DNA from: Minisyncoccota bacterium
Lineage (GTDB): Bacteria; Patescibacteriota; Minisyncoccia; Minisyncoccales; JAGOPM01
DNA length: 64,000 nt
Direction: 5' to 3'
Assembly (NCBI GenBank): GCA_041651395.1
Contig: JBAZJI010000001.1
Location: 827,920-891,919 of the forward strand
Below the pieces are notes generated by a model, which saw only the letters and a program-made list of their open reading frames with translations, was not told where the DNA came from and made no database searches. Of the stretch, positions 1,218-62,368 are shown one piece after another; the stretch's first letter is position 1, and every line of letters starts with the position of its first letter. A program made the translations under genes and the position numbers.

Positions 1218-4200
1218 TTATTGGATTGGTGCTTCAACAGGCAAATCCGCTGGCAGAGTCACATTAATCGGATCGGGTGGTAGAACTTCCGGAGCTACAT
1301 CGGGGGGCGTAGGCGAAGCTTCAGTGACCGGTGGAACCTCGGCGGGTGGAGTTTCTATTGGCGCTGAAGAAGTAGCGGGATCGGCAAAGGGCACAACCGA
1401 ATCGGTTGTCGTTGCAGGAGAACCAACGGTAAGAGCATCAACATTAATAGACGATGATGCGGAAGAGGTATTGGCAATATTTTGTTCCGGTGACGGAGGG
1501 ATAATCACGTCCCCTCCCCCCAAAGGCAATACTGCCGCCGCAGTTCCCTGACAAGCGCCTGAAACTTTTTTCCAATCGCCATTTTCAATCCAGAGACAAT
1601 AAGTTTGACCCGTAGCTTTATCAATGGTTTCGAATTCATTAGTAATAACTTTTTGGGCCTTAAGTGCCTTAACCTCTAAAGTTCCATCTTCGCCAACTAT
1701 TAATCCGATGTCGGTTAATTGGTTGCGCAACGAAGAAACTGCCGGATTATTTATTATTTGACCGTCAATATTTGTCTGGATAGATAAATCATTACCGGAC
1801 CATTGCGGATTAATATACACCTCAATCAAACTTTGGCTGGATGTGCCCATATTTTCCAGAGCCATACCTAAAATTCTACCCGCCGAAGTAGCTTTTATAC
1901 CTATTCCTTCATTGATACCAGAGGTAATGTAATCTCCCTTTTTTATCTCCCCATTCTCGGCGCCAACTTTGACTTTCGCCCGGCCAAAAGGAACAATTTT
2001 CCCCCCCATCGCAGCTACACCAAAAATCTCAGTCTGATATGGCCTATTTGTTTTTATAACTTCTCCCGTACTGGTTGAAAAATAAACAATATCCCCCTCA
2101 CTTAGATTACTATTTACGATATCTGACTCAAACTTTTTTATTTGGTCCTGCTGTTCCTGAATAGCGGCAGTCAAAATGGCGTTCATACCCGGATCGACAA
2201 TCCACCTATAACCTTGTTTTTCAATTACAAATTGTGGAATTACATTTTGGAACTCATCAGCATAAAAACCGTAAAAACTGATATCTTTTTGCAATTTTAA
2301 CAAATCTTGTCCGGTTTTATTATATCGGAATTGGATTGGATGCAGGGCTTCTATAATTCCCATCGCCGAATCAGTCAAATTAGCCTCAAAAACCTTTAAG
2401 CGGGAATCTGAAGGGACCGGAACCCAAGGCCCGCCAACACCATTATCCCAATAAGGGGTACCGGAAACATAAATATCCCCATGAAAATAACTCGAACCCC
2501 AAACATCAAGCTGCCCCAAAATATTTGCCGAACCAGCGGTTAATAATCCGGTAATATTGGCTGTACTTGCAGAAATATTTCCCCCAACTAACAAATCACC
2601 CGTTACCCAGCCATCTCCATTAACTTTTAGTTCATAGGTAGTCGCATCCGGATCGCCATAAATACCCACAAAGCCATTTGCGACGCTAACATTAATCGAT
2701 TCGGCTGCTCCGGCCGTCGGCGATAATATTTTGCCCATCGCGTCAGTTGCATCATATAAAATCCTAAAAACATTTGCCCGTGGGGCTCCGGTATTAAAGT
2801 TTAGGGTTGGGCTATAAGTGCCACTAACATAAGCACTAATGGAAAGTGTCGGGTTTTTTGCCGTTTCTAAAATCTCCAAACTGCTAGTGGGCGAAGAGGT
2901 GCCAATGCCCAAACGCTTGCTGGTCGAATCCCAAAATAAAGAACTTTCCCCGGCAAAGTTGGTATCGCTTTTATATTGAATACTGCCGTCTACCCCCGCG
3001 GGCGTACCCGAACCACCGCCCAAGCCAAGAGTTGAGGTTGCTACCCACTTAAATCCCGAACCAGTTGTTTGCAAAACCATTCCATTAGCTCCCGATGTGC
3101 TGAAATTATCGTAAAACGCACCCGTGATGCCTAAGGTTCCGGAAACCGCAAAATTATAACTTGGCGAGGTAGTGCCGATACCAATATTGCCAGCGCTTAA
3201 AATGGAGAAGCGCTCCGAACCCGCCGGCGAGCTTAAAATAGAAAGACGGTTATCGCTTTGCTGCGATATTTGCCAAGTATTAGGCCCGATATAAGTAGTA
3301 CTAACCCATAAAGAATTCCACCGAGTTGTGCTGGCACCCAAATTATAAGTGGAAACATTGCCACTACTTCCGTTCATATCCGGAATAATATTCCAAGCAG
3401 TAGTAGTACCGACAATCTGCAATTTAGTTTCTGGGCTAGAAGTTCCAATACCAACTTTCCCATCAGCATTAGCAACTATGATATCCGCGAACCCGTCCGA
3501 ACCAACACTAAAAATACTGGTTGTTGGTGAAGTGCCAGAGGCCATAATACCCAATGACCCTTGAGAAAATATTCCACCGGGGCCAACCGATAATGATTTG
3601 CCAAGAACCAAATACCCGTCAAAATTTGCGTTCCCGGCCACATCCAAACCGCCAGTCAAAACAGCTCCGGCTTCCAGCTGTTGAAGAAAAGCTCCACCCA
3701 AGTCCAAAGACTTCAAATTTGTTCCATCACCAACAAAGGCATACCTTCCCTGCACCTTCACGCCTACACCACTAGTCAAAGATATTGAACCAGTTTTAAT
3801 AATATTGGATGGATTAGAAATATCATAAACAGAAAAACCAGTGCCCTCGTCAACATAAGCATATCTGCCCTGTACATCTAAAGACCATACATTACCTGCG
3901 CCAGCCTTTGAACCGATAAGATAAGGTGTAGTAGTGGCAATGTCATATATCTGTAATGTTCCTTGGCGCATCAAATAGGCATACCGGCCCTGAATTTTCA
4001 TATCTTCCGAGCCGTTACTCGTGTACGTAAAACCAGTCAAAGCCACTGGAGCTGAAGGATTAGAAATATCATAAATATGCAAAGCATCCCAATCGGTTAT
4101 ATAAAGCCTATCACCCTGAACACTGACATTAGACGCGTTGCTAAGCAATGATCCTGAAATATAAATCTGTTTCGGGCCATATACATTAGAAATATCATAA

Positions 4201-56333: not shown

Positions 56334-56405
56334 GCCCCTGTAGCTTAATGGATAGAGCACTGGTCTTCGGAACCGGTGATGCGGGTTCGATTCCTGCCAG
56401 GGGCA
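56334..56405 (+). tRNA. tRNA-Arg (anticodon TCG)
   Basis: Acceptor GCCCCTG/CAGGGGC, D-arm GCTT-AATGGATA-GAGC, anticodon arm CTGGT-CTTCGGA-ACCGG, T-arm GCGGG-TTCGATT-CCTGC. No CCA is encoded. Confidence 0.92.
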
Positions 56406-56419
56406 CTAATAAAAATAAT

Positions 56420-56716: not shown

Positions 56717-56752
56717 TTGCTTTGGAATAAATTATTGTTATCATACTTTACA

Positions 56753-56809
56753 CTCCCGTAGTTGAATGGATACAACGAGGCCTGGCAAGCTGCAAGTGCA
56801 GGTTCGATT
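56753..56809 (+). pseudogene. 5' three-quarters copy of tRNA-Arg(CCG), ending at the T-loop, with an altered anticodon arm
   Basis: 56753-76 equals 56920-43 (24/24). 56789-809 equals 56957-77 (21/21). The 12-13 nt between them differ by 4 substitutions plus a 1-nt deletion (loop CTGGCAA versus CTCCGAA). No matching 3' acceptor strand is present. Confidence 0.8.
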
Positions 56810-56895
56810 ATTAGAAATACAAAATAAGCACAGCGAATTTTAATATTTCTCGTATGCCGGGTAATCCCGGCGCCTGCTGGAAACAGGAAGAGAAC
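56810..56895 (+). repeat. T-loop insert element, copy C (63-nt two-hairpin insert plus CCTGC plus aggaagagaac motif)
   Basis: It starts directly after TTCGATT. Hairpin 1 is agaaata(56813-19)/tatttct(56844-50). tatGCCGGG-taat-CCCGGC lies at 56853-71. CCTGC (56873-77) is complementary to the T-stem GCAGG. It is homologous to copies A and B at 61.75 kb. Confidence 0.75.
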
Positions 56896-56918
56896 ATGAC
56901 AACCAAATAGGTAAATAT

Positions 56919-56990
56919 GCTCCCGTAGTTGAATGGATACAACAGTGGCCTCCGAAGCTGCAAGTGCAGGTTCGATTCCTGCCGGGAGCA
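56919..56990 (+). tRNA. tRNA-Arg (anticodon CCG)
   Basis: Acceptor GCTCCCG/CGGGAGC, D-arm GTTG-AATGGATA-CAAC, anticodon arm GTGGC-CTCCGAA-GCTGC, T-arm GCAGG-TTCGATT-CCTGC. No CCA is encoded. Confidence 0.92.
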
Positions 56991-56996
56991 CAAACG

Positions 56997-57747: not shown

Positions 57748-60700
57748 ATGAATAAGAACAAGATCGCCGCGGCTATCACTGGGATTCTTTGTTTGGCTCA
57801 AATGCTGCAATTTGCTCCGGTGCGAGCGCTTACAGTTTGCCCTAGCGGCAACTGCAGCATTTTGATCGAAGAAGTGTTGTTAAAAGTGGATGGGCAAGTC
57901 ATTTCTGATAATGACAAGTCCGCGATGATGACTAATGTTCCTTTTGAACGGGTTTTTCTCCCCGGGACGCAGATGGAGATATCCGTGAAAGCTTCCGGTC
58001 CGATTAATGATGTCGCTTATTGGTCCCTCTATTGGGGCACTAATGACACGCCATCGTTGATAAACAGCGACCGGACAATCTGCGCAAAATGCCCAGGAGA
58101 AAAATATGTTCCCGAAGGCGCACCGGTTTTTAATGTTAAATGGGCTGTCCCTAAGGATGCCAAAAAGTATTCCAAAATTTGGATTCAGTCCTTTGACCAA
58201 ACCGGGAAAACCATGGGCGGAGCTAATACTCGCCCGCTGGTGCACAGCCAAACAATCATCAAACCGAACTGCTATGTTTCAGAAATAAAAGATGTAACAG
58301 AGAGTAGCGCTACGGCCATTATTCACTTTGCAAGGCCGGGGAGTGTTTGGCCCTTAAACTCTTGGCTGGAGCTAAGAAGTGATTCGGGACAATATTTTCC
58401 CAACCACAGCCAACCGCTGGGAATGAAAACATTCCAAAATGCCCAAGGGCTTACTGAAAACCAAAATAAGCTTGCCGTTGTTTTGAAAGATCTTCTCCCT
58501 AATTCCAAATATTGGGTAAAAGCCATTGCGGCTAGTGAGGGAGGATATTGTGAGAGCAGGGAAGTAGAGCTAATAACTCTTTGCGCCTTGCCGCAGCTTA
58601 AAACTTTACGCTGCTCCAAAATCGATTGGAACCAAAACAGTTGGAATCAAACCGACAATTCAGCCTACTTAACTTGCGAGATAACATCCTTTGGCGGAGA
58701 TAACTATATGGAAGTTATGGTACAGGGGTTCAATATCAATGCACCCCGGGAACGCTTTGGCACAACTTGGCAGCGTCTTGAATGCAGCCAATTTGACCAA
58801 CTGCCAAGTGAATTTACATTGCAAGCCGGCAAAGGATTTACAGCGGAGGAAGTTTATGACTTCGAATTCTTAGCGCGCAACAGCCGTGGAGAGATTGCTA
58901 GTGGAGGACATAAATACTTTCCGCCACCCTTTCCCGGATACAAACCAGAAATTGTTACGGGCGGGGTTAAAAAAGTAACTCCAGACTCAGTCGAGTTGGT
59001 CATTAAAGTTGTCTCCATTTCTCATCCAACAAAAATTTGGCTGGAAATCACTGACCAAAAATTTGGAGATACTTGGGATAGAGGGAAGTATACTCCCGAC
59101 CCCAATGGCAAATCCATACTCAGCGATTCGCTGGAAGTGGACTTGCCCGGAGAATACACCATTACTGTCAAAAATCTGGAACACAATAGAGGCATGGAAA
59201 AACCACCCTCCTGGGTCAGAAAAGAATACCCTCATCTCAAATACACACCAGGCTATTTATTCAAAGCCCATGCCCTAGACTTAACCACTAACGAAACGGA
59301 CAAGGGCACTGACTGGTCAAGATTGGAAACTTATCGCACTCTCCAAAAACCCAAGGTCACCACCAAGCAACCCATAAACATCACTTACAAAAGTGCGGAT
59401 TTGGGGGCAATGGTTGATTTCTCAGGTTTTAGCAGTAAATGCGTAATCTTCTTCAAGTATTGGCAAAAAGGCAAAATAGCCCAAACCATTCAAGAAACAT
59501 TCCCCCGAATCCAAGTCGAAACTCGCTATGATTACGTAGATTTTGAGCTCATGGAAGCCACACGCTTTACGGTTGAAAATCTCGAGCCATACACTGTTTA
59601 CTGTTTCCAAGCCTATGTAATCAATGGCCTAACAAACAGCACGGGAGAGCAAATTGAAACGCCAGCGGCCAATATTCAAGAATTCCGGACCTTGTGGGGA
59701 GATAAAAATTCTATTTACGATACTCCCTTAATCCAGACAACCGGAGTTTCCCAAACTGGGCCAAACACCTTTTGCCTGCAAGGAAAGCTCTTAGACTTTG
59801 GCGGGTCAGATTGGGTCGAAGTCACGATTGAATTTTGGGGTTTAAGCACACACTTTGAAGGAGAACAATCCTTTATTTATGTAGGCCTATACCGCAAAGA
59901 AAATTGGCAAGACAGATACCCGACATTCGATGTTTATCGCAGTAATCTGGTCTTTGGCAAATCGTTCGTCTTCCGCTTCACCGCGCGCTCTAGCGCGGGT
60001 ACCACCAAGGGATTTTTAATCGATTCCTCCGGCCAAAAAGTTGAGGGGGGATTCTGGAAATTCCAAACCGACCCTCTGCCTGGAGATCAGGTTAAACCAG
60101 AAATATTTCTGAAAGGCATTAAAATTCTAATGCCCGACCAAACTGAAGAAAACCCCACGCCCCAAGCCATCATCACTATCAATGTCCAGAATATGGGCAC
60201 ACCACCACTTCCTTGGTTGGATCTCCAATACCTTTGGACTCGATATAGTGGTTCGGTAATCGCAGCTTGGCCTAATACTTGGCAATACAAATCAGAAAAG
60301 ATCCGAATAACTAAAGCTGGCGAATATTCCTTCCTAATAAATAAAGGTTTGGAATTTGGCCGAAGTTTCTTTATAAGCGTGAATGCGGAAAATGGAAGTA
60401 TGTTAACCTGGATGGTGCCAGAAAGTAAATTTTTCCCGCACTATTTCACCACTGACCACCTTCCGCCGCTTATCAAAGCCACTAACCCCACCTTCATCAA
60501 TAAACAAAACACCCTGGCTAATACTCAAGTAATACACCCGGGGACCAACGAATGGGGAACTTTCTTTAGTTGGTTTGAAGTCGTAACTTTCCGCGGATCT
60601 GTCGATGCAATAAATAAAGAAATTACGGTCTTGCCCGACACTCTAAACCCTAACAACCAATTGCTCACCCGCACACTCTTTATGACCCCCAAAATATCCA

Positions 60701-60912
60701 GAAAAGGCACTAAGCCGTATTCCTTCAGTATCAATGCCGATCCAGGACTCTTAAATCTACCCGACGAACAATCCGGAAGTAAAATAATTTCCACTTACTA
60801 TGCTTACCGCGCATGGGCTCAAAACCAAGGCGGGCAATACCATACAAGCTGGATAGTGGTTACTGATGATACATTCCAAAGGATGGATAAGATGCCTTGG
60901 GAAAAACCCTAA
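57748..60912 (+). CDS. large secreted multi-Ig/FN3-like repeat protein
   Basis: 1054 aa. AAGGAGG is 6 nt upstream. The signal peptide is ..LQFAPVRA/LT. Beta-sandwich-type modules recur (..LTCEITSFGGDNYMEVMVQGF.., ..CLQGKLLDFGGSDWVEVTIEFWG.., ..GAMVDFSGFSSKCVIFFKYW..). There is no C-terminal anchor. Confidence 0.88.
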   Translation: MNKNKIAAAITGILCLAQMLQFAPVRALTVCPSGNCSILIEEVLLKVDGQVISDNDKSAMMTNVPFERVFLPGTQMEISVKASGPINDVAYWSLYWGTNDTPSLINSDRTICAKCPGEKYVPEGAPVFNVKWAVPKDAKKYSKIWIQSFDQTGKTMGGANTRPLVHSQTIIKPNCYVSEIKDVTESSATAIIHFARPGSVWPLNSWLELRSDSGQYFPNHSQPLGMKTFQNAQGLTENQNKLAVVLKDLLPNSKYWVKAIAASEGGYCESREVELITLCALPQLKTLRCSKIDWNQNSWNQTDNSAYLTCEITSFGGDNYMEVMVQGFNINAPRERFGTTWQRLECSQFDQLPSEFTLQAGKGFTAEEVYDFEFLARNSRGEIASGGHKYFPPPFPGYKPEIVTGGVKKVTPDSVELVIKVVSISHPTKIWLEITDQKFGDTWDRGKYTPDPNGKSILSDSLEVDLPGEYTITVKNLEHNRGMEKPPSWVRKEYPHLKYTPGYLFKAHALDLTTNETDKGTDWSRLETYRTLQKPKVTTKQPINITYKSADLGAMVDFSGFSSKCVIFFKYWQKGKIAQTIQETFPRIQVETRYDYVDFELMEATRFTVENLEPYTVYCFQAYVINGLTNSTGEQIETPAANIQEFRTLWGDKNSIYDTPLIQTTGVSQTGPNTFCLQGKLLDFGGSDWVEVTIEFWGLSTHFEGEQSFIYVGLYRKENWQDRYPTFDVYRSNLVFGKSFVFRFTARSSAGTTKGFLIDSSGQKVEGGFWKFQTDPLPGDQVKPEIFLKGIKILMPDQTEENPTPQAIITINVQNMGTPPLPWLDLQYLWTRYSGSVIAAWPNTWQYKSEKIRITKAGEYSFLINKGLEFGRSFFISVNAENGSMLTWMVPESKFFPHYFTTDHLPPLIKATNPTFINKQNTLANTQVIHPGTNEWGTFFSWFEVVTFRGSVDAINKEITVLPDTLNPNNQLLTRTLFMTPKISRKGTKPYSFSINADPGLLNLPDEQSGSKIISTYYAYRAWAQNQGGQYHTSWIVVTDDTFQRMDKMPWEKP

Positions 60913-60923
60913 ACCAAATAAAT

Positions 60924-60949
60924 GCGAAGACTTATGTCTTCGCTTTTTT
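60924..60949 (+). terminator. intrinsic terminator
   Basis: gcgaagac-ttat-gtcttcgc followed by TTTTTT. Confidence 0.85.
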
Positions 60950-60951
60950 AT

Positions 60952-60979
60952 TTGCAGGGCAGGGGACGCATGGTATAAT
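60952..60979 (+). promoter_or_regulatory. sigma70 promoter with extended -10 driving a probable leaderless mRNA
   Basis: TTGCAG (60952-57), 16-nt spacer ending in TGg, TATAAT (60974-79). The ATG at 60987 is only 7 nt downstream. Confidence 0.65.
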
Positions 60980-60986
60980 ATTTTTA

Positions 60987-61529
60987 ATGAAAAATAAATC
61001 TGCCTATTTTTTTACCGCGCTTTTAGCCACCTTCTTTTTATTTTCTATAGCCTATGGAGCTACGAGCACCCCCAAAGATTTGGATTTTGATTTGCCCAAA
61101 CCTTCCGCCCAGACACCGATAGCCTGCGAGGCTTGGAAAGGCGGCCTGCTGGAGGGTGTTTGCAAAGATCCCAGCAAATTAGAATTTTGCCACCTTTTTG
61201 TTTTGCTGGACAATATTATCAACTGGATAATGTTTGTGGCTATGCCCATAGCAGCCTTTCTCCTTTTGGTTTGGGGAGGGTTTAATTATATTATTTATCT
61301 GGAAAACCCCGCCAATGCCAAAAAATTCTGGGATACGGCCAAAGCTCTTTTGTGGGGCGCTATCGTAGTTTATGCCGCCTATGCCGTGGTTAATCTCTTC
61401 CTGATTATTGTCGGCGCCAAAATTTTCTCACCGGAAGCCGGATTGGGACAATGGTTCAAATTCCCTTGCGGAACCGGCGCGCCGCCGGCTAGCACTTCCA
61501 CCCCGCCAACCGGAGTTAGTGAATTCTAA
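60987..61529 (+). CDS. T4SS-pilin-like (TrbC/VirB2-type) membrane protein, tentative
   Basis: 180 aa from ATG 60987. It has a signal peptide ..FSIAYGA and two TM helices flanking GGFNYIIYLENPANAKKFWDTAK, a pattern I recall from CPR type IV secretion system pilin proteins. The C-terminus is Pro/Thr-rich. Confidence 0.7.
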   Translation: MKNKSAYFFTALLATFFLFSIAYGATSTPKDLDFDLPKPSAQTPIACEAWKGGLLEGVCKDPSKLEFCHLFVLLDNIINWIMFVAMPIAAFLLLVWGGFNYIIYLENPANAKKFWDTAKALLWGAIVVYAAYAVVNLFLIIVGAKIFSPEAGLGQWFKFPCGTGAPPASTSTPPTGVSEF

Positions 61530-61632: not shown

Positions 61633-61703
61633 GCCTCCGTAGTTCAACGGTAGAACAGAGGACTCTTAATCCTTTAACGAGGGTTCGATTCCTTCCGGAG
61701 GCA
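61633..61703 (+). tRNA. tRNA-Lys (anticodon CTT)
   Basis: Acceptor GCCTCCG/CGGAGGC, D-arm GTTC-AACGGTA-GAAC, anticodon arm GAGGA-CTCTTAA-TCCTT, T-arm GAGGG-TTCGATT-CCTTC. No CCA is encoded. Confidence 0.92.
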
Positions 61704-61707
61704 CATA

Positions 61708-61746
61708 CAAAGTAAAAGACGCCACATGTTGGCGTCTTTTACTTTG
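61708..61746 (+). other. 17-bp perfect hairpin immediately 3' of tRNA-Lys
   Basis: caaagtaaaagacgcca-catgt-tggcgtcttttactttg. There is no U-tract after the stem, so its role (terminator or processing site) is unclear. Confidence 0.7.
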
Positions 61747-61749
61747 TGT

Positions 61750-61851
61750 CTCCGAAAGGAGAGAACGAAGTTCGATTTAATAGATTTTCTTGGCGAGCAA
61801 GGCGAACCTAAGAAAATCATGTATGCCGAGTAATCTCGGCCCTTCCGGAGG
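61750..61851 (+). repeat. T-loop insert element, copy A (tRNA-Lys-derived mini acceptor/T-arm plus 63-nt two-hairpin insert)
   Basis: ctccg..aggagagaac-gaag-TTCGATT(61771-77) is followed by a 63-nt insert. The insert contains gattttctt(61783-91)/aagaaaatc(61810-18) and tatGCCGAG-taat-CTCGGC (61822-40). It ends in CCTTC-CGGAGG, which equals the 3' end of tRNA-Lys. Confidence 0.75.
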
Positions 61852-61950
61852 AAAAAGGAGAGAACACAGTGTGATTTATTAGACTTTCAAGCGAACAACG
61901 TGAGCTTAGAAAATCTTATATGCCGCGTATCGCGGCGGCTACCGGAGAAG
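61852..61950 (+). repeat. T-loop insert element, copy B (more diverged)
   Basis: aaggagagaac-acag-TGTGATT is followed by a 62-nt insert. The insert contains agactttc/gaaaatct and tatGCCGCG-tat-CGCGGC (61919-36). It ends in ct-ac-CGGAGA. Confidence 0.7.
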
Positions 61951-61967
61951 GAAAATAATACCAGCCA

Positions 61968-61991
61968 GAAGGGCTTAAAGCCTTCGTTTTT
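61968..61991 (+). terminator. intrinsic terminator
   Basis: gaagggc-ttaaa-gccttc followed by gTTTTT. Confidence 0.7.
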
Positions 61992-62007: not shown

Positions 62008-62036
62008 TTGCAAAAGATAGAAAAATCAGGTATAAT
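62008..62036 (+). promoter_or_regulatory. sigma70 promoter of rpsO
   Basis: TTGCAA (62008-13), 17-nt spacer, TATAAT (62031-36). This leaves a ~65-nt leader before ATG 62105. Confidence 0.72.
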
Positions 62037-62104: not shown

Positions 62105-62368
62105 ATGCTTAAAACAGAAAAGAAGCAAAAAATCATTAAAGGCGTTCAGACGCACGATACGGATACCGGCTCGCCCGAAGTCCAAATCGCTGTTCTTACC
62201 GAACAGATAGAAAAGCTTTTGCAGCACTTGGATTCACATAAAAAAGATTTCCACTCCAAGCGCGGTCTCCTGAAGATGGTTATGAAGCGCAAAAAACTTC
62301 TGAATTATCTTAAGAGCGAAAGCGTTGAACGGTTTGAAAAGATCTCCAAAAAGATCGGCCTTAAATAA
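62105..62368 (+). CDS. rpsO: 30S ribosomal protein S15
   Basis: 87 aa from ATG 62105: ..[50 protein letters not shown].. The length matches S15. The upstream ATG 62060 would add 15 non-conserved residues. Confidence 0.93.

Follow-up and report, generated by a model that had tools for sequence, protein, structure and literature searches.

A single module of about 60 nt that holds no ORF, and not a tRNA-derived gene, is the object that is repeated beside the tRNA-Lys(CTT) and tRNA-Arg(CCG) genes, and it is a new small mobile or structured-RNA element. In all copies of the window (the whole stretch of 64 kb that was analyzed) it lies in a single orientation exactly between T-loop nt 60 and T-stem nt 61, and its host sequences are disabled spare copies of the adjacent tRNA-Lys-CTT and tRNA-Arg-CCG, both of which are C34 isoacceptors. 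Two hairpins joined by the linker TGTAT make up the module: hairpin 1 is long (13 bp) and AT-rich, contains a bulged A, and is capped at its tip by GA/AG, and hairpin 2 is a GC hairpin of 6 bp. We tentatively propose, at somewhat less than an even chance, that it is a structure-dependent, non-autonomous insertion and recombination module which is aimed at the T-arm and has spread locally by unequal crossover.

Three Copies of the Module Lie Beside Two tRNA Genes

The window was searched with the covariance model R1, with filters off, which found exactly three copies (94.8, 87.5, and 76.0 bits; next best match, 12.4 bits), so that the three-copy family of the original prediction is real. The same three copies were present in an independent ENA assembly of the same genome, and an extension of 10 kb on each side (about 83 kb in all) contained no more units and no more tRNAs. 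Two of the copies, the tandem units A and B, are derivatives of tRNA-Lys(CTT) located downstream of that gene:

61633–61704 (+), intact tRNA-Lys(CTT), called by ARAGORN; 71.5 bits with the Rfam tRNA model
61707–61747 (+), perfect 18-bp terminator-type hairpin, haplotype "T3", directly 3' of tRNA-Lys (inverted repeat I6, 100% complementary)
61748–61851 (+), unit A, whole (R1 match 61770–61848, 94.8 bits)
61750–61759 (+), 5' closing strand of unit A, CTCCGAAAGG, followed by the linker AGAGAACGAAG
61771–61777 (+), T-loop relic TTCGATT of unit A, read from the sequence
61778–61840 (+), insert of unit A, 63 nt, read from the sequence
61782–61818 (+), hairpin 1 of unit A, AGATTTTCTTGG ... CCTAAGAAAATC with apical GAGC-AAG-GCGA, from folding and the covariation table
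61825–61840 (+), hairpin 2 of unit A, GCCGAG-TAAT-CTCGGC, preceded by the conserved TGTATG
61841–61851 (+), 3' end of unit A, CCTTCCGGAGG, identical to tRNA-Lys nt 61–71
61852–61947 (+), unit B, a degenerate copy (R1 match 61869–61945, 76.0 bits)
61870–61876 (+), T-loop relic TGTGATT of unit B; the unit also has the linker AAAAAGGAGAGAACACAG
61877–61936/7 (+), insert of unit B, 60–61 nt, with a blurred 3' border (flank GGCTACCGGAG)
61881–61916 (+), hairpin 1 of unit B, with one C.A mismatch
61922–61936 (+), hairpin 2 of unit B, GCCGCG-TAT-CGCGGC
61968–61985 (+), terminator-like hairpin and T-run 3' of the array, in the window haplotype only and not in other haplotypes
62008–62036 (+), rpsO promoter-like site TTGCAA-17-TATAAT, the right-hand limit of the variable spacer
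62105–62368 (+), rpsO

The D and anticodon arms are missing from the Lys units, the 5' strand of the acceptor is also lacking from internal units, and the GTTC in the T-loop of alpha-type units pairs elsewhere. Unit A has a predicted fold of −37.3 kcal/mol (z = −3.9 on the + strand), in which a closing helix is formed by CTCCG-AAAGG and CCTTCCGGAG. The fold of unit B is weak (z = −0.5 on the + strand, −2.4 on the − strand), and this unit is visibly decaying. The 3' tRNA-like ends had been described as a regular part of the layout; that of unit A does equal tRNA-Lys nt 61–71, but these ends are decaying relics which are not conserved as such. Likewise, the aggaGagaac motif (AGGAGAGAAC) is better seen as the linker behind each unit.

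The third copy, copy C, lies at the tRNA-Arg(CCG) locus:

56752–56897 (+), copy C, a full-length disabled paralogue of tRNA-Arg (R1 match 56802–56880, 87.5 bits)
56782–56788 (+), anticodon loop of copy C, CTGGCAA
56803–56809 (+), T-loop of copy C, TTCGATT
56810–56872 (+), insert of copy C, 63 nt, after which comes CCTGCTGG
56813–56850 (+), hairpin 1 of copy C, AGAAATA-C-AAAAT ... ATTTT-A-A-TATTTCT
56856–56871 (+), hairpin 2 of copy C, GCCGGG-TAAT-CCCGGC
56886–56895 (+), linker GGAAGAGAAC, the copy C form of the motif, after the 3' flank CCTGCTGGAAAC
56919–56991 (+), intact tRNA-Arg(CCG), which starts 46 nt past the insert of copy C and 21 nt past the linker

Direct repeats D2 and D7 link copy C with the intact tRNA-Arg, from which it differs mainly at the anticodon, at nt 26–28, and at the acceptor end. 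Its D arm, anticodon stem, and T stem are intact and its acceptor stem is paired at 4–5 of 7 positions. The remainder of the copy evolves in concert with its neighbour, G7 and A45 being common to both within the window and A7 and G45 within L035. An orthologue of copy C, with compensatory changes, is found in L035 and L039. Neither copy C nor the Lys units qualify as functional tRNAs: ARAGORN calls only the 6 intact tRNAs, copy C was called neither by ARAGORN nor by the Rfam tRNA model, and with an E-value limit of ≤1 that model matched neither copy C nor the units.

As no promoter was found in a scan of the spacer between copy C and tRNA-Arg(CCG), the two are transcribed from a promoter upstream of copy C. 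Its homologue in the outgroup L087 is the promoter of a single tRNA-Arg, which is uninterrupted there; the Arg insertion is therefore derived.

Both Hairpins Are Preserved by Compensatory Changes

Pairing statistics were calculated for 10 distinct units from three related lineages. Among these, 95.1% of the cells were paired and 13 of 19 pairs had changed on both sides (14 of 24 in the extended structure), which bears out the claim that two hairpins are preserved. None of 500 shuffled controls reached the observed pairing and covariation, and in slid controls 36–50% of the cells were paired. The covariation proposed for hairpin 2 was also correct: its fifth pair is A-T, C-G, and G-C in A, B, and C, respectively, and relatives add the variants GCCGCC/GGCGGC and GTCGGG/CCCGAC. 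First units of different lineages differ at 7–8 stem pairs, none of which is lost. The fixed insert length of 62–63 nt, in contrast, holds for A and C (63 nt) but not for unit B (60–61 nt), and the length across the family is 60–83 nt.

Apart from the stems, a bulged A and an apical GA...GA motif with 1–2 covarying pairs and a triloop are conserved across units, and a U.G stands at columns 11–52 in 8 of the 10. On the + strand each of the three window copies has one C.A mismatch, which would read as G.U on the other strand; units of the L035, L044, and L087 lineages fold equally well or better on the + strand, where alone they form G.U pairs. An active − strand, at which the window copies hint, was discarded given that the other lineages disagree and that a minus-strand promoter was not found.

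The closing helix claimed for unit A was confirmed and is also seen in the first unit of every haplotype, where it closes a four-way junction with 7–9 bp that include a compensatory change. This change lies outside the insert, as seen in L044 (TTTGGAAGG / CCTTCCGAAA).

The borders confirm that one position, 60/61, is occupied in derivatives of two different tRNAs. On the left, Lys- and Arg-derived copies share the border GGTTCGATT, and on the right the border is tRNA-specific (CCTTCCGGAG for Lys, CCTGCTGGGA for Arg); in the L035 orthologue, copy C', the right flank equals tRNA-Arg nt 61–70 at 10 of 10 positions. At every junction the insert comes directly after ...GATT, with no target duplication at the right border, and even degenerate copies retain this ...GATT (TGTGATT, TGAGATT). 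The insert borders are complementary over short stretches (GTTC...GAAC, and 8 bp, GTTCGATT...AATCGAAC, in copy C'). While the tRNA parts decay, with D and anticodon arms deleted and acceptor ends broken, the insert stays intact.

Such structure-preserving variation shows selection on single-strand folding. Selection of this kind is equally expected for a folded-DNA substrate of recombination or transposition, and a functional RNA is not thereby proved.

The Family Is Confined to One Small Clade

Members of the family were found only in a small "Paceibacterota" clade of ultra-small (CPR) bacteria whose S15 is at least 90% identical, and the family was absent from relatives with S15 identity of 86% or less. 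A scan of genome contigs with sequence anchors gave 32 loci, among which only the syntenic MAG L026 was a real match; those in the 23S group I intron of L004 and L032 share an identity of only 19–20 nt, which falls in a P6 extension of this CPR intron and is compatible with chance. All 40 loci from the metagenome contigs and all matches in two scans of viral contigs were due to chance, and blastn of the insert against phages and plasmids retrieved nothing. A weak and unproven R1 match (20.6 bits) was located in a Gottesmanbacteria 5' UTR (L008).

No promoter of the unit's own was found on either strand. Transposase, integrase, and HUH domains were not seen by Pfam in ten ORFs between 44 and 61 kb or in precomputed Pfam assignments for about 20 related loci. 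The Rfam 15 scans (the window at gathering thresholds, both loci and relatives at E ≤1–10) returned intact tRNAs only, in agreement with the initial impression that no known RNA family has this layout. A small ribozyme was excluded by the lack of matches to Rfam ribozyme families, a leader of rpsO (S15) by the position of the units upstream of the rpsO promoter and by the location of copy C at another locus, and small ORFs by frames that differ between units and stems that vary in a paired fashion.

The tRNA-Lys to rpsO Spacer Differs Between Near-Identical Strains

From the gene upstream of tRNA-Lys to the start of rpsO, the spacer measures 315, 576, 585, 616, 717, or 813 nt and carries 0, 2, 2, 2, 3, or 4 units, respectively. 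The flanks of strains with differing arrays differ by 0–1 nt in 2.2 kb; some differences in copy number (4 vs. 2 units) could be due to short-read collapse of tandem repeats. Of 10 contigs, which represent three lineages, 9 have one intact unit or more. The only "empty" haplotype is L038, in which the whole array is gone and a G1.A72 tRNA is left. It differs from L044 by exactly the DNA between two CCTTCCGGAGG direct repeats, one at tRNA-Lys and the other after the last unit.

Three unrelated terminator hairpins (T1, T2, and T3) occur 3' of tRNA-Lys among these near-identical strains, and T1 and T2 were not found elsewhere in the related loci examined. The arrays are mosaic: hairpin 1 of the window unit A matches beta' of L035 and its hairpin 2 matches alpha, and hairpin 1 of unit B matches unit 2 of L044. 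An inversion in L087 has one breakpoint inside a unit. In the related species L085, an 18-nt 5' fragment of tRNA-Lys and 87 nt with a new promoter are placed upstream of the intact gene. The gain, loss, and reshuffling of arrays and the narrow clade are explained by a housekeeping ncRNA no better than by a selfish or recombinogenic element. On either of these readings the spacer provides a natural strain marker, which changes while the surrounding 2 kb are identical.

A Proposed Mobile Module Aimed at the T-Arm

In the tentative mechanism that we propose, the module would fold as a single strand and be acted upon by a factor encoded elsewhere, which supposes a single-stranded intermediate and a trans-acting enzyme. 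It would enter the T-arm at the loop/stem junction, after ...GATT and with no target duplication, the T-arm target being itself a hairpin in single-stranded DNA. The insertion would survive only if the tRNA is redundant or exists in a further, intact copy. Afterwards, unequal crossing-over and gene conversion among units would multiply and shuffle them locally, and the unit would be transcribed passively along with the tRNA.

A mobile module would account for one junction used in two tRNA backgrounds with a fixed orientation and no duplication, for an Arg insertion that is derived relative to the outgroup, and for both hairpins being kept by compensatory change. It also agrees with the rapid turnover of the array, the mosaic exchange of hairpin modules between units, the inversion breakpoint inside a unit, and the intact insert in decaying tRNA parts; furthermore, the narrow phylogenetic range and the units' lack of a promoter argue against a conserved gene. 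Against mobility, the copies are just three in about 83 kb and each is beside its cognate tRNA, whereas a mobile family is defined by dispersal. A transposase, integrase, or HUH gene was not seen in the ORFs scanned, and the haplotypes compared contained no empty-versus-filled pair for the insert alone. In addition, no known transposition chemistry fits well, because the hairpins are dissimilar, hairpin 2 stops within 0–1 nt of the border, and the insert has neither terminal inverted repeats nor a target duplication. The structure is moreover conserved at an orthologous locus in lineages whose S15 is just 90% identical, and a conserved structure with closing-helix compensation at so few copies is easier to obtain by selection at the level of the host.

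The closest parallels to a mobile module are the small hairpin-forming selfish repeats, namely the mitochondrial double-hairpin elements of Allomyces and other fungi, GC clusters, repetitive hairpin elements, Rickettsia palindromic elements, and REP/BIME (PMC4478555, PMC2800124). Like them, the module is short, free of ORFs, conserved in fold rather than in sequence, located inside or beside structural RNA genes, and variable between strains. Mobility of these repeats, like that proposed for the module, has no known mechanism or acts in trans. The module departs from them in being bacterial (CPR), in using one precise site and orientation, in having 3 copies in about 83 kb, none of them dispersed, and in that its two hairpins are not alike. 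With the miniature elements derived from IS200/IS605 (PATE) and the REP-type elements it shares an orientation-specific position 3' of a short motif, with neither duplication nor terminal inverted repeats. The subterminal hairpins of these elements are similar and set back from the cleavage sites; here the hairpins are unrelated and hairpin 2 lies 0–1 nt from the border. Such elements also come in many dispersed copies with a TnpA or RAYT gene in the genome; the stretch covered here, about 83 kb of a 0.95-Mb genome, showed three copies and no such gene. A MITE was discarded, given that the insert borders vary by compensation, unlike transposase-binding repeats, and that there is no duplication.

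Folded single-strand recombination sites (integron attC arrays, CTX-phage attP) resemble the units in the precedence of structure over sequence, an extrahelical base, and strain-variable arrays, and the GTTCGAT of the units agrees with the GTTRRRY core of attC at 6 of 7 positions. Unlike attC arrays, the units have no R''-L''...L'-R' layout (the GAAC/GTTC boxes are adjacent or wrongly ordered), no cassette ORFs, and no integron integrase among the genes scanned, and they are tied to tRNA relics. If mobile, the module would be the first demonstrated case among small bacterial elements of targeting to the junction of loop and stem in the tRNA T-arm, and would offer a rare view of selfish DNA in the streamlined CPR genomes.

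A Structured RNA, Integration Scars, or an Intron as Alternative Readings

It is possible, though on the whole doubtful, that the units are a functional structured RNA, in which a double hairpin that evolves fast is carried on a scaffold, either a "disarmed" copy of the tRNA or a mini acceptor/T-arm helix. Such an RNA would be made within a tRNA precursor (the 5' leader of tRNA-Arg, or a 3' trailer of tRNA-Lys produced by read-through), released by tRNA-processing enzymes, and active in trans; it could, for instance, sequester a tRNA-binding factor as its decoy or sponge. A more specific proposal, which we regard as unlikely, is that the host keeps the units as a family of tRNA-mimic RNAs, cut from tRNA precursors to serve as decoy or sponge for some tRNA-directed factor (a modification enzyme, a nuclease toxin, or an integrase, for instance), while an arms race would diversify the arrays.

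Copy C, being placed between the ancestral tRNA-Arg promoter and the intact tRNA, must be transcribed, and its pattern of differences looks like that of a deliberately inactivated tRNA fold. RNA-like non-Watson-Crick features (GA...GA, bulged A, U.G) are conserved on the tRNA-sense strand, the + strand is favoured by units of the L035, L044, and L087 lineages, and every haplotype has a four-way junction with a compensated closing helix in its first unit; the retention of an intact unit in 9 of 10 contigs is also in line with a function. Set against a functional RNA are the change from 0 to 4 copies between near-identical strains, with one haplotype having none, and the absence of the family from close relatives. 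The Lys units stand behind a strong terminator hairpin and without a promoter, internal units have lost the closing acceptor strand, and unit B decays. The strand evidence is mixed, given the C.A mismatches of the window copies, and the arrival at the same junction in a second tRNA is left unexplained.

The tRNA-mimic ncRNAs (the tRNA-like domain of tmRNA, the bacterial Y-RNA YrlA, and mascRNA) have an acceptor/T-arm-like scaffold and are processed by the tRNA machinery, both of which are possible for the units too. In these mimics the extra domain stands in place of the anticodon arm; that of the units occupies the T-loop, their acceptor ends are broken, and they match no Rfam model. A functional RNA would thus represent a new re-use of the tRNA fold, by expansion of the T-loop, and a fast-evolving RNA locus added in host-dependent organisms.

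We consider it improbable that the units are scars of integrase-mediated (Campbell-type) integration, by which a replacement tRNA end with its own terminator was delivered, the old end was displaced downstream, the interior was later deleted, and the hairpins are leftover arms. With the tRNA fragments of integrative elements (P4-like islands, SSV1-type) the units share partial copies beside an intact tRNA, the direct repeat of nt 61–71, a replaced 3' end with terminator, and a strain-variable region. The CCTTCCGGAGG repeat brackets exactly the DNA that is absent from L038 as compared with L044, the tRNA 3' end comes with a different terminator (T1, T2, T3) per strain, and L085 has a 5' fragment of tRNA-Lys, along with a new promoter, ahead of its intact gene. 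If the crossover fell 3' of the insert, the order intact tRNA–insert copy would result, as seen at Lys; a crossover on the 5' side would give the reverse order seen at Arg.

In attL and attR, however, the tRNA segment is contiguous, whereas in every unit it is split at 60/61; the units are about 100 nt long, tandem, and interrupted by a structured module, with one copy upstream of the intact gene. Integrase and cargo are absent at about 20 loci, where the arrays are of 270–500 nt and free of ORFs. The same precise internal deletion would be needed repeatedly, and relic arms would not keep two hairpins through at least 13 compensatory pair changes. Partial tRNA copies beside tRNA genes are thus not always integrase scars, which should be borne in mind in annotation.

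That the insert is a tRNA intron (archaeal-type or other) whose excision from the T-loop would yield a mature tRNA, as the original prediction had considered, is hardly credible, and on the sequence this reading is effectively refuted. Non-canonical archaeal tRNA introns occupy several positions outside the anticodon loop and move between tRNA genes, and those of Thermoproteales are, like the insert, short and found at one defined position off the anticodon loop in different tRNA species; the common position in two tRNA backgrounds would be in keeping with this. Unlike them, the insert has no bulge-helix-bulge or sign of splicing, its 5' junction running into the helix of hairpin 1 with a distal partner and its 3' junction being the foot of hairpin 2, and the joined flanks cannot yield a functional tRNA. 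Each host copy is non-functional and has an intact cognate tRNA next to it, and the organism is a bacterium. A group I intron, which would have the catalytic core P3–P9, is likewise excluded by the insert length of 60–83 nt and the lack of a match to RF00028.

Three insert-bearing units at two tRNA loci

Six tRNA genes were called in the window by ARAGORN and Rfam. The tRNA-Lys(CTT) gene is followed by a terminator-type hairpin and then by two tandem units of about 100 nucleotides each, and a third, insert-bearing copy is found at the tRNA-Arg locus:

56752-56897, copy C, a full-length paralogue of the tRNA-Arg(CCG) gene at 56919-56991
61633-61704, tRNA-Lys(CTT), called by ARAGORN and Rfam
61707-61747, perfect 18-bp terminator-type hairpin directly 3' of tRNA-Lys
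61748-61851, unit A, CTCCGAAAGG-AGAGAACGAAG-TTCGATT-(63 nt)-CCTTCCGGAGG
61852-61947, unit B, TGTGATT, a 60-61-nt insert, then GGCTACCGGAG; a poorer copy than A

The final 11 nucleotides of unit A (CCTTCCGGAGG) are those of tRNA-Lys nucleotides 61-71. Copy C is 100% identical to tRNA-Arg(CCG) over its first 24 nucleotides and 90% identical over the 31 nucleotides up to the T-loop, where TTCGATT is followed by a 63-nt insert and CCTGCTGG. As the original prediction held, derivatives of two tRNAs carry the insert at an identical site, which in A, B and C lies between T-loop nucleotide 60 and T-stem nucleotide 61.

The tRNA-derived parts are relics. The Lys units lack the D and anticodon arms, internal units also lack the acceptor 5' strand, and units of the alpha type (alpha and beta' being names of unit types, both present in L035) pair their T-stem only out of register. 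Copy C retains the D arm, anticodon stem and T-stem; in the window and in its orthologue in L035, a related contig, it has a broken acceptor end and the anticodon loop CTGGCAA. ARAGORN and the Rfam tRNA model passed over the Lys units and copy C alike.

Copy C sits at the ancestral position of tRNA-Arg. The promoter and leader before it (...TAATATggtttac in L035) are homologous to their counterparts at the one tRNA-Arg gene of the outgroup L087 (...TAAGATggtttac), and a promoter scan found no promoter in the spacer of about 20-30 nucleotides before the intact tRNA-Arg, so that copy C would be transcribed as a tRNA-Arg leader. No promoter-like site was found inside the arrays on either strand, and the Lys units, located behind a strong terminator hairpin, would be reached solely by read-through.

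Both unit-bearing tRNAs are C34 isoacceptors (Lys-CTT, 61633-61704; Arg-CCG, 56919-56991). The U34 tRNA-Arg(TCG) at 56334-56406, about 500 nucleotides upstream of tRNA-Arg(CCG), has the same TTCGATT T-loop and is untouched. A terminator-like hairpin with a T-run 3' of unit B (61968-61985) is restricted to the window haplotype; other haplotypes have different sequence there, including, in L035, an apparent further degraded unit end (GCGGC-CCTTGCGGAAG). Directly upstream of tRNA-Lys (57748-61529), two proteins are encoded, one of 1054 aa with a faint fn3 match and the other small and T4SS-pilin-like, in a synteny kept in all relatives examined.

Distribution of the family

A covariance model of the insert family (R1), built from nine distinct units, was run over the whole window with filters off. 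It recovered exactly A, B and C, at 76-95 bits, everything else scoring 12.4 bits or less, and an independent ENA assembly of the same genome contained the same three copies. On these grounds the original three-copy observation is genuine and lies well outside anything that chance would give.

When one genome per species was scanned with fixed patterns, the element turned up in a single syntenic MAG (L026). The organism carries the label Candidatus Paceibacterota in one source. Look-up of the window S15 protein (the rpsO product) returned ten contigs, from strains near-identical or about 95% identical, and more distant relatives were obtained through S15 homologues. Units were present in three lineages: the window genome, the L035-L044 group (flanks 94-95% identical to the window) and the L087-L090 group (S15 90% identical). 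Relatives with S15 at 76-86% identity had tRNA-Lys and a terminator with no unit, and searches of metagenome, viral, phage and plasmid sequences gave no further copies. The element is confined to one small clade, and any function is putative.

R1 also scored weakly (20.6 bits, E 0.005) on the minus strand of L008 (7365-7423), a Gottesmanbacteria chromosome, within a gene's 5' UTR and with no tRNA nearby. This candidate, of unproven homology, combines a closing helix and a long hairpin with TATG and a CCGTG-TAAT-CACGG hairpin.

A fold conserved by covariation

Ten distinct units align to a single structure. Its long hairpin (3 + 8 + 5 bp) has a conserved bulged A on the 3' side and a tip made of G-A, one or two covarying pairs, a triloop and G-A; the linker T(T/C)GTAT and a 6-bp GC hairpin, closed mostly by TAAT, follow. 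Pairing held in 95.1% of cells, and both sides had changed in 13 of 19 pairs (14 of 24 in the extended structure). None of 500 shuffles reached the observed pairing and covariation values and slid controls paired at 35-50%, in agreement with the structure-preserving variation first noticed in three copies. The insert length proved less constant than the proposed 62-63 nucleotides, ranging from 60 to 83 across the family.

Between the L087 unit and L035 alpha, 7-8 stem pairs differ and none is lost. About 20% of insert positions differ between copy C and its L035 orthologue, compared with about 5% in the flanks, with compensatory changes in hairpin 1 (AGAAATA/TATTTCT versus AGGAATAC/GTATTCCT) and hairpin 2 (GCCGGG/CCCGGC versus GCCGCC/GGCGGC). 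The first unit of each array has a closing helix of 7-9 bp, pairing CTCCGGAAGG-like with CCTTCCGGAG-like flanks and compensated in L044 (TTTGGAAGG with CCTTCCGAAA). A short segment 3' of every unit is complementary to the T-loop-derived left border (GAAC with GTTC; AATCG with CGATT; in the L035 copy of C, 8 bp of AATCGAAC with GTTCGATT).

For the window copies the minus strand gives the slightly better fold; on the plus strand each has one C.A mismatch. In the other lineages, the plus-strand fold of 7 of 7 units equals or betters that of the minus strand, and G.U pairs occur on the plus strand alone; the GA...GA cap is likewise a plus-strand feature, as is a U.G pair that 8 of 10 units share. 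It is firmly established that single-strand folding is maintained by selection; we lean weakly towards the tRNA-sense strand, the same pattern being expected from single-stranded DNA.

Between their hairpins 1 and 2, beta' units hold a nested, perfect hairpin of 20 nucleotides (CCTGCCTGCCGGTAGGCAGG; L035 5778-5797, also L037 and L039-L044), with no other occurrence in the window or the 104 loci compared. A 19-mer of hairpin 2 (TATGCCGAGTAATCTCGGC) is also found antisense in the P6 extension of a 23S rRNA group I intron, at 1418-1436 of L004, a Zambryskiibacteria MAG (intron 1325-1598, minus strand), and at 1573-1591 of a second MAG, L032; identity ends at 20 nucleotides and about 28 random hits arose in the scan, making the match compatible with chance.

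Turnover among strains

The spacer from the gene upstream of tRNA-Lys to the rpsO start measured 315 nucleotides in L038 (no unit), 576 in the window and 585 in L044 (two units each), 616 in L039 and L042 (two), 717 in L037 and L040 (three) and 813 in L035 and L036 (four). L035 and L037 differ by 1 nucleotide in 2203 nucleotides of flanks, yet their terminator hairpins are unrelated and their first units differ. Between L035 and L039 the flanks are identical, with four versus two units; L038 and L044 are 1 nucleotide apart with none versus two. In L038 the tRNA T-loop is fused to the flank of L044's last unit, a deletion between both CCTTCCGGAGG repeats that left a G1.A72 tRNA. Hairpin modules were swapped between units: window A is a mosaic of a beta' hairpin 1 and an alpha hairpin 2, and window B shares hairpin 1 with L044 unit 2. 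Short-read assemblers may collapse identical tandem units, which makes the four-versus-two difference the least secure; the differing terminators, unit types and mosaics are not explicable by such collapse.

The block of tRNA-Lys plus unit is inverted in L087, with one breakpoint within a second unit, and the tRNA-Arg pair is inverted in L035. Blocks of tRNA plus unit coincide with rearrangement breakpoints (L087 5030-5300 and L035 399-640, versus window 56750-56991 and 61633-61950). The L087 inversion places pyrF before rpsO, and the L035 lineage lacks the HMA gene and tRNA-Arg(TCG), both upstream in the window. In a related species tRNA-Lys is partly duplicated in another way (L085 1858-1960; cf. 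L086 1700-1784): the first 18 nucleotides of the tRNA (GCCTCCGTAGTTCAACGG) precede 87 unrelated nucleotides, which carry a promoter-like site (TTAAGA-17-TATAAT) and lead into the intact tRNA-Lys. In a sister contig from the same sample, tRNA-Lys is uninterrupted.

Origin of the insert

The element is real and moves fast, with unusually good support from covariation and an odd site specificity. It is firmly shown that the module arrived at one and the same junction in two unrelated tRNA backgrounds; the insertion at Arg is derived because the outgroup lacks it. Fixed orientation, absence of target duplication, fast turnover, narrow range and decay of the tRNA parts make a non-autonomous module for insertion and recombination, dependent on its structure and targeting the T-arm, the most likely explanation, which we favour tentatively. 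Insertions would be tolerated solely where an intact or redundant tRNA remains, and unequal crossover would lengthen and shorten the arrays. Against such a module, copies are few (three in about 83 kb), no enzyme was seen among the genes scanned, known chemistry fits poorly, with none matching, and the fold, including the closing helix outside the insert, is conserved at the orthologous locus across lineages. The last of these objections speak for the main rival, a functional RNA on a tRNA scaffold, which is possible at a lower probability. Integrase scars at tRNA genes would account for the direct repeat, the replaced terminators and both gene orders, but leave the interrupted tRNA segment, the missing cargo and the maintained hairpins unexplained, and are improbable. 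The intron-like option of the original prediction is effectively excluded, because the host copies are disabled, uncalled relics and the insert junctions have no bulge-helix-bulge. The remaining probability falls to other mechanisms.

A literature search found no description of such an element in CPR bacteria, and on their defining tests the unit fell outside every known family compared. Closest in behaviour are small hairpin-forming selfish repeats (mitochondrial double-hairpin elements, GC clusters and Rickettsia palindromic elements); closest in layout are the tRNA-fragment scars of integrative elements.
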